Part shown: positions 59,856 to 59,937 of the stretch, in pieces | Layout of the letters: each line of letters starts with the position of its first letter | How positions within the stretch are numbered: position 1 is the first letter of the stretch | NCBI GenBank assembly: GCA_031258545.1 | Contig: JAIRMU010000019.1 | Span: 70,219-134,218 of the forward strand | Reading direction: 5' to 3' | Length of the DNA: 64,000 bases | Source of the DNA: Puniceicoccales bacterium | GTDB lineage: Bacteria; Verrucomicrobiota; Verrucomicrobiia; Opitutales; UBA9783 | Notes under the pieces: model-generated | Told to the model about the DNA's origin: nothing | The model's input: only the letters and a program-made list of their open reading frames with translations | The model's database searches: none | Translations under genes and position numbers: made by a program

Positions 59856-59885
59856 TTGACAGGGGTAGGTAGGAAAGGATACAAT
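59856..59885 (+). promoter_or_regulatory. Near-consensus sigma-70-type promoter
   Basis: TTGACA (59856-59861) - 18 nt - TACAAT (59880-59885). Predicted start ~59892, just before the octamer repeats. Confidence 0.45.
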
Positions 59886-59897
59886 AACTTAACTGTG

Positions 59898-59937
59898 AAG
59901 ACCTCAAGACCTCAAGACCTCAAGACCTCAAGACCTC
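59898..59937 (+). repeat. Perfect tandem octanucleotide repeat (AAGACCTC)x5
   Basis: Read directly: aagacctc aagacctc aagacctc aagacctc aagacctc, followed by the partial aaag. Confidence 0.95.

Follow-up and report, generated by a model that had tools for sequence, protein, structure and literature searches.

A GTG-abutting octanucleotide repeat as the probable switch of a translational phase-variation cassette in Puniceicoccales

The 64-kb stretch of Puniceicoccales DNA analysed here (the window) carries an octanucleotide repeat, (AAGACCTC)n, behind a sigma-70-type promoter. We consider it probable that this tract acts as the switch in a contingency cassette for translational phase variation, a reading that predicts copy-number variation within the population, the use of the GTG codon abutting the tract and the position of the transcript 5' end. 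Its mode of action is most likely translational phase variation and not an effect on the length of the 5'-UTR. In the proposed mechanism the strong promoter would start an mRNA with little or no leader, and translation would begin at the GTG, run through (AAGACCTC)n as (KTSRPQDL)n and continue through a linker and an Arg/Lys-rich hexapeptide-repeat region into the signal peptide that precedes a secreted beta-propeller. With a unit of 8 nt, slipped-strand gain or loss of a single unit would switch the frame, the gene being OFF with 5 units and ON with 3, 6 or 9. The repeat-encoded part precedes the signal peptide, so that cleavage of the latter would leave it out of the mature protein; an identical type of cassette appears to head a type IV pilin-like gene, seemingly in the same genome. 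GTG initiation, the leaderless transcript, slippage in the population and cleavage of the leader are the steps that we infer.

The tract, its promoter and the copies of the cassette

The promoter and the five perfect repeat units given in a preliminary description of this DNA are both present. The hexamers match the consensus at 11 of 12 positions, and Tandem Repeats Finder places the repeat at 59898-59939 (period 8, 5.2 copies, 100% matches, score 84, unit AAGACCTC), i.e., five perfect units on the forward strand plus two further matching bases. The gap of about 12 nt that had been noted from the -10 hexamer to the repeat indeed measures 12 nt; it had been overlooked that its last three nucleotides are a conserved GTG and that the downstream ORF has a frame without stops back to the repeat. 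No second SSR in the window combines a unit length of 4-11 nt with a copy number above 3. When the window was scanned with a 16-nt two-unit pattern (up to 3 mismatches), matches occurred at the tract alone (5 overlapping matches against 0.30 expected, a number that 0 of 100 shuffles reached). In a published survey, tetra- to octanucleotide tracts were counted from three units upward (PMC7383803); the tract here has five perfect units, each 8 nt long and thus of a length not divisible by three. The unit is free of stop codons in all forward frames, and three units are translated as KTSRPQDL.

A promoter matching at 11 of 12 positions occurs at one site in the window, against about 1.3 expected in Markov-1 random sequence, so that the match alone is no rarer than chance and its credibility rests on conservation at the other cassette loci. 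There it is kept as TTGAC[AG]-17/18-TACAAT at three loci (L144, L187, L211), and the -10 hexamer is also kept at a fourth (L002). The gene of the primary sigma factor, rpoD, is located in the window at 29208-30980.

Table 1. Features of the cassette and its gene in the window, further copies of the cassette, and paralogues with other repeats
Feature or locus	Position in the window	Strand	Genome or protein	Basis or remark
5' edge of cassette, A-rich GAAAACCC directly upstream of -35	59846-59855	+		similarity among copies begins
Sigma-70-type promoter TTGACA-18 nt-TACAAT	59856-59885	+		11/12 match, conserved in cassette copies
Candidate start codon GTG	59895-59897	+		abuts tract, ~9-10 nt after -10, invariant among copies
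(AAGACCTC)x5 SSR, proposed slippage switch	59898-59937	+		Tandem Repeats Finder, pattern scan
Post-tract linker KASKRLIANVVPELKE, includes a degenerate extra 8-nt unit	59938-59985	+		ORF frame
TAA closing the GTG frame in the 5-unit state	59946-59948	+		translation, VKTSRPQDLKTSRPQSV then stop
Degenerate 18-nt repeat array, Arg/Lys-rich (QRLxPx)-like hexapeptides	59986-60255	+		stop-free also in L002, L197, L001
Hydrophobic signal peptide or membrane anchor LACSGFFLNFIRFCMVLIGAVCLTRPLVA	60256-60342	+		aligns with ATG-started family members
Mature domain of secreted protein, predicted beta-propeller	60343-61905	+		stop codon 61903-61905
L144			MAG Cc175_bin121	at least 13 units, contig end
L187			MAG Cc175_bin121	at least 7 units, contig end
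L211			MAG Cc175_bin121	at least 12 units, some imperfect, contig end
L002 (contig shared with L142)			MAG Cc175_bin121	~10 units, some imperfect; precedes 71%-identical homologue P0003
L197			MAG Pcl387_bin165	contig starts inside tract, at least 14 units
L237			P0017	ATG...ATG GAC ATT (AACGGCTC)x7.9; in frame, (NGSTAQRL)n before signal peptide
L238			P0012	(AAGACCC)x14 next to contig edge; frame open to signal peptide
L241			P0006	ATG GAT ATG AAC GCT GTT (TCTTACAAGGG)x3.4; in frame
L239, counterpart of L241			P0005	1.4 units; ATG frame ends at TAA

Public genomes and metagenomes were scanned for three AAGACCTC units. The arrangement of the window, GAAAACCCTTGACAGGGGTAGGTAGGAAAGGATACAATAACTTAACTGTG-(AAGACCTC)5, recurs as TTGAC[AG]-17/18-TACAAT-9 nt-GTG-(AAGACCTC)n at L144, L187, L211 and L002/L142, and at least five further promoter or tract copies, with 7 to at least 14 units, are present in two related MAGs (Table 1). 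The number of units thus varies across loci and MAGs, and the window tract is the shortest. Similarity among the window, L144, L187 and L211 begins about 10-15 nt upstream of the -35 hexamer, the sequences farther upstream being unrelated or weakly similar. The GTG is invariant in all five copies that cover the position, while the 9-nt spacer after TACAAT varies.

Contigs habitually break at the cassette, as would be expected of a multi-copy element in short-read assemblies: a contig end is found at a distance of 360-480 nt from each of the genes of P0002, P0003, P0005 and P0012, and a Logan contig of SRR14710907, 100% identical to the window over 55366-59866, ends inside the promoter. No second allele of the window tract was found by exact-protein look-ups with DegT, the ORF (in two versions) and FolKP (the DegT look-up returned the Logan contig ending at the promoter, and the ORF versions and FolKP returned nothing on record).

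The repeat unit itself is widespread. Tracts of (AAGACCTC)n and of its AAGACCCC/AAGACCC variants were found at more than 113 genome loci and more than 120 metagenome loci in unrelated phyla; among the matches listed, only the Puniceicoccales loci share flanks with the window, the others belonging to Acidobacteriota, Cyanobacteriota and further groups. The variants AAGACCCC, AAGACCC and AGGACCTC are abundant SSRs in unrelated bacteria and many of them are apparently intergenic. There are at least 21 such loci in the Acidobacteria MAG SJ725 and at least 14 in one Cyanobacteriota MAG, and, among the matches listed, many in Vicinamibacterales and Thermoanaerobaculia. Some of the loci (numbered L123-L235 and L003-L122) stand directly before start codons, e.g., L003 and L041, and in a few proteins (P0105, P0109) the unit is translated. 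As the repeat is common in other phyla with different flanks, the unit seems to be intrinsically prone to expansion, and these tracts are uninformative on the Puniceicoccales cassette.

The gene lies among a DegT aminotransferase, an MFS transporter and a fused HPPK-DHPS (FolKP), and no long ORF was found in 58664-59855. This region of about 1.2 kb upstream of the cassette holds no credible ORF or Rfam match, but within it a motif (AATCCAATGGCATT, 59526-59539), about 330 nt 5' of the promoter, recurs upstream of L144 and L211, and a 200-nt stretch (59330-59542) is 66% identical to L144; motif and stretch are possibly a regulatory site or a remnant. An invertible promoter was also considered and rejected, the flanking inverted pairs being just 10-13 nt long with 77-91% complementarity and no recombinase being found among the flanking genes.

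Start codon, reading frame and the encoded protein

With 5 units, in silico translation from the GTG gives VKTSRPQDLKTSRPQSV and reaches a TAA after 17 codons, so that the assembled state would be OFF; by frame calculation, 3, 6, 9 or 12 units join the GTG to a frame of 668 codons. The tract of L002 is likewise out of frame (one unit fewer or two more would be needed), and thus both complete tracts, those of the window and of L002, are out of frame. The downstream ORF is listed as 60034-61905 and its frame is open from 59899: a TGA of this frame at 59896-59898 overlaps the GTG, and then no stop occurs for 668 codons. Between the tract and the TTG at 60034 there is no in-frame ATG, GTG or TTG. 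The internal TTG codons of the frame are at 60034, 60238 and 60256 and could allow expression that does not depend on the repeat. The ATG at 60298, halfway along the hydrophobic segment, lacks conservation (ATA in L002, GTG in L197). The GTG is therefore the sole conserved candidate for a start codon, to judge from these alignments. The TTG of the -35 hexamer was rejected as a start, since it is in the frame of the GTG in the window but other copies have 17-nt spacers and the relation is not conserved.

Shine-Dalgarno motifs precede only 3 of the 39 long ORFs in the genome, and because they are so rare there, the absence of one before the GTG is no objection to its use. In members of the family that lack the cassette, the start codon follows the -10 hexamer closely (TACAAT-6-ATG in L241, TATAAT-7-ATG in L239 and TACAAT-6-ATG in L240), and starts 6-7 nt after the -10 hexamer suggest leaderless mRNAs. 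The window mRNA is probably leaderless or nearly so as well, with the GTG, about 9-10 nt from the -10 hexamer, being rather far away. Public start calls differ: in the window JGI begins at MVDSTG (466 aa), which is residue 203 counted along the open frame, while NCBI begins at ATG 60298 (535 aa), and for L002 JGI gives 490 aa and NCBI, from an internal TTG, 583 aa. Such disagreement indicates that public annotation systematically shortens cassette genes that are out of frame.

From the tract to the conserved YTPPF, the frame of the ORF contains no stop in the window (149 codons), L002 (130), L197 (193) and L001 (96), compared with 2-13 stops in one of the other frames and 1-5 in the other (in three of the four loci one alternative frame has just 1-2 stops). 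Under a Markov model the probability of a stop-free frame is 0.014-0.095 per locus. The period of the array in this region is 18 nt, a multiple of 3, by which a stop-free unit propagates, and the open frame is therefore supporting, not decisive. Between the window and L002, the extension shows a pS of 0.65 and a pN of 0.29 with 32/27/56 differences at the three codon positions (protein-guided alignment); a nucleotide-only alignment gave 24/19/38 (p = 0.03). Judged by these substitution patterns, the divergence of the extension is of the coding type.

The encoded parts follow a conserved order: (KTSRPQDL)n, KRLIANVIPELE, variable (QRLxPx)-type repeats, GxLKxxGxSGLFxNFIRL...LTxPLxA and YTPPF. 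The linker behind the tract is kept at the protein level (TKRIVANVIPELED in L002 and SKRLIAGDIPELES in L197) with synonymous changes, e.g., Leu is encoded by TTA, CTG or CTA across the three loci, and its ASKRLI is also found behind the tract in the pilin-like protein P0118. Hexapeptide arrays similar to the one that follows, in the same frame, occur in leaders of pilin-like proteins. This array, which the preliminary description had mentioned as a downstream repeat array, is most likely a coding hexapeptide-repeat region and not leader RNA. The hydrophobic segment LACSGFFLNFIRFCMVLIGAVCLTRPLVA ends before the conserved YTPPF.

RNA-level features of the 5' region were sought as well. A search of 58600-60400 against Rfam returned no family at E-values up to 1. 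The predicted fold of 59892-60300 (409 nt) has an energy of -129.6 kcal/mol (z = -1.87, with 5 of 100 shuffles as good) and contains no clear arm complementary to the tract. A GGA-rich sponge or leader of the CsrA type at 59960-60260 was rejected, because GGA occurs 15 times against 10.4 expected locally (P = 0.09), and its excess over the window average arises from the coding of the hexapeptide repeats.

Read from ATG 60298, the gene encodes exactly the protein NCBI MDR0647584.1 (LBF43_04095; P0119). No Pfam domain was found in the downstream ORF. There are twelve close homologues, of which the six named by NCBI are all from Puniceicoccales MAGs, and in a set of 1.84 billion proteins the family accounts for 93 clusters at 50% identity; intact N-termini of the family have a signal peptide ending in A directly before Y(T/E)PPF. 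The AlphaFold2 model is a beta-propeller (pTM 0.83, mean pLDDT 70.7), the best PDB matches of which are sialidase-type folds first and then other propellers, at a TM of about 0.4 and 8-12% identity. Such values are insufficient for naming the protein a sialidase, and it is predicted from the model to be a lineage-restricted secreted or surface propeller.

Two further observations concern the same genomes. A FHIPEP (FlhA/SctV-type) export-apparatus gene (2831-4933 of L002) adjoins the cassette-bearing homologue, which indicates that the lineage has a flagellar or type III export system. On the reverse strand of the window, a 779-residue ORF at 19393-21732 with no Pfam domain has two runs of 13-15 prolines about 12 residues apart, encoded by GGC/GGA trinucleotide repeats and a G8 run (repeats at 20915-21025). 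We take these runs to resemble those of profilin- or actin-directed effectors of intracellular bacteria, and the Puniceicoccales MAGs carrying the cassette are presumably derived from termite guts.

Paralogues with other repeats and pilin-like genes with the cassette

Paralogues of the propeller gene carry other repeats in the 5' part of their coding regions (Table 1). L241 and L239, which share an 11-nt unit, form a natural pair of an in-frame and an out-of-frame gene and follow the same ON/OFF logic; the contig of L239 comes from the same sequencing run as the Logan contig of the window, and its NCBI copy has an LBF43 locus tag. Four units, none of them a multiple of three, at the same position in one family read as the signature of contingency genes.

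A protein search with the hypothetical ON-form N-terminus retrieved P0107 (JGI) and its cluster-mate P0118 (NCBI MDR0647087.1). P0118 is a prepilin-type protein of 240 residues, V/M-(KTSRPQDL)x4.75-ASKRLIITGRLKTPVPGRASKSPSIPRNG followed by FTLIEVVVAL, and in both proteins the tail after the tract runs from ASKRLI to RNG directly before FTLIEVVVAL, with the N-methylation motif PF07963 at residues 66-89. Since the first residue in the JGI entry is V, the called start is the GTG directly before the tract, and NCBI (M) made the same call; the promoter and the exact tract of P0118 were deduced from the protein. The accession MDR0647087.1 is in the same run as MDR0647584.1, which suggests that both proteins belong to the same MAG. 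At the position that is M or L in relatives with an ordinary short pilin leader, P0118 has an S, and the protein would therefore depend on the start in the cassette. In the MAG of L002, a gene of the GspH family (P0108) begins at a contig edge inside the tract. On these comparisons one cassette appears to serve two unrelated families, with the pilin-like copy in frame and the window copy out of frame.

Many pilin-like genes of Puniceicoccales (P0125, P0133, P0142, P0156 and others; homologues of P0118) have leaders of 40-220 residues. These long leaders are mosaics of leader ends (..KYPSVSRNGF), fossil linkers (HRDTKTSDRLIA, TESSKRLVANVVPEPEDFGQ) and hexapeptide arrays, some of them even hold a signal peptide of the propeller family with YTPPF, and they match the window at 59929-60417 in the frame of the ORF. 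The mosaics suggest repeated recombination at the 5' ends between the pilin-like and propeller families. It is conceivable, and we put it forward tentatively as somewhat doubtful, that the cassette is portable, with recombination placing it before unrelated surface-protein genes that lack starts of their own and the mosaic pilin leaders being its fossils. If true, this host-associated lineage of Verrucomicrobiota would gain a modular, leaderless, SSR-driven ON/OFF system.

Alternative readings and relation to known systems

SSR contingency loci are textbook knowledge in a few cultivated pathogens (Neisseria, Haemophilus, Campylobacter and Mycoplasma). In the opa genes of Neisseria, (CTCTT)n in the region encoding the signal peptide sets the frame and thereby the ON or OFF state, with most copies being OFF at once. 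The family described here resembles opa in being a multi-copy surface-protein family, each copy with its own promoter and an SSR, not a multiple of 3, in a part of the precursor that would be removed. It differs in having a unit of 8 nt (or, in paralogues, of 7 and 11 nt) instead of 5 nt, in that the tract abuts the GTG and is probably at the extreme 5' end of the mRNA, and in that about 120 residues of repeat-rich sequence separate the tract from the signal peptide; moreover, gene families unrelated to each other have the cassette at their head, the lineage belongs to Verrucomicrobiota, and the switching is predicted. In pilC of Neisseria, a phase-variable component of the type IV pilus, a poly-G repeat is located in the 5' coding region. 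The second family that bears the cassette is similarly prepilin-like (PF07963), with the SSR in a leader that processing would remove, but the repeat is an octanucleotide and not a homopolymer, and some 65 residues, an unusual length for a leader, stand before the G that precedes FTLIE. The lic1A, lic2A and lgtC genes of Haemophilus influenzae have tetranucleotide repeats just after the start codon. They share with the cassette, as it is proposed to work, an SSR within the first codons of the ORF and ON/OFF switching of the frame by slipped strands, and they differ from it by their tetranucleotides and by having ATG starts with ordinary leaders and sometimes alternative ATGs in two frames, whereas the single GTG here would give one ON frame in three. 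Frame-dependent contingency switching by slipped strands is a general principle (PMC3546556).

A comparison with the hmw genes of H. influenzae bears most directly on the alternatives. The repeat is (ATCTTTC)n in hmw1A and hmw2A and an octanucleotide, (GCATCATC)n, upstream of hmwA in biogroup aegyptius (PMC3309571); octanucleotide SSRs are thus rare but recorded. The hmw repeats are untranslated and grade expression through a 5'-UTR hairpin and RNase III (PMC12721329). They have a 7- or 8-nt unit in tens of copies, are transcribed, and stand directly downstream of the promoter of a secreted adhesin, while the tract of the window lies in an open frame behind a candidate start codon and has no convincing predicted hairpin (z = -1.87).

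The tract could accordingly be read as an hmw-like 5'-UTR repeat that is untranslated, with the start at TTG 60034, 60238 or 60256 or at ATG 60298 and with expression graded by copy number. This would agree with its place just downstream of the promoter, as the hmw repeats lie between promoter and start codon (PMC3309571) and form part of a 5'-UTR hairpin (PMC12721329), with the presence of the in-frame internal TTG and ATG codons (NCBI calls ATG 60298 and, for L002, an internal TTG), and with a 5' region that folds slightly better than shuffled sequences. We regard it as unlikely, because the GTG next to the tract stays the same in sequence surroundings that change, four loci keep an open frame as far as the signal peptide and diverge there in the manner of coding DNA, and ATG 60298 lacks conservation. 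Further points against it are that a prepilin without a visible start codon of its own continues the cassette in frame, and that the SSRs of the paralogues lie clearly inside ORFs started by ATG; in addition, the fold signal is weak and Rfam gave no match.

The preliminary description had called the tract a contingency element and had proposed that copy number would act through the length or structure of the transcript 5' end. The first part gains comparative support from the cassette copies and the SSRs of the paralogues. The second is disfavoured, given that the tract stands behind a conserved GTG, that the frame is stop-free in four loci and that a pilin-like product is in frame. A frame shift, which had been mentioned for the case that translation starts further upstream, is the better-supported mechanism by way of the conserved GTG and the open frame.

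Phase variation may be a property of the cassette family, present or past, while the window copy has ceased to switch at a useful rate and is locked, the gene being silent or constitutively expressed from ATG 60298 with a short signal peptide. The tract of the window is the shortest of all copies, and for this reason the copy could be decaying: it is out of frame with its 5 units, where the other copies have 7 to at least 14, a degenerate extra 8-nt unit follows it, ATG 60298 is unique to the window, and only 1.4 units, out of frame, are left in the paralogue L239, the contig of which stems from the same sequencing run. We find this quite improbable for a copy in which the five units are perfect (those of L002 and L211 include imperfect ones) and more numerous than the three of the survey criterion (PMC7383803), the whole extension is still stop-free in the frame of the ORF, and the short form, MVLIGAVCLTRPLVA, would be without the charged start of a normal signal peptide. 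A functionless neutral microsatellite or assembly artefact is scarcely credible and largely refuted, for although AAGACCTC-type SSRs are common in unrelated phyla, many apparently intergenic, and short-read assemblers can misjudge the length of a tract, independent assemblies of different samples show the tract together with this promoter, GTG and linker, and it keeps its position relative to the ORF across diverged paralogues.

In the literature searched, no report of SSR phase variation in Verrucomicrobiota was found. Relative to the known systems, what is new is the length of the units, the sharing of a possibly portable cassette, a start that is probably leaderless, and the occurrence in a lineage without reported phase variation. 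If translational switching by the cassette is confirmed, gene callers would systematically mis-start the cassette genes, and the contig breaks in the MAGs would be explained. This uncultured lineage of Puniceicoccales appears to run a secreted beta-propeller family and pilin-like proteins under repeat switches with unusually long units of 7, 8 and 11 nt, and, if so confirmed, this host-associated group, of which little is known, would count stochastic variation of its surface among its strategies.
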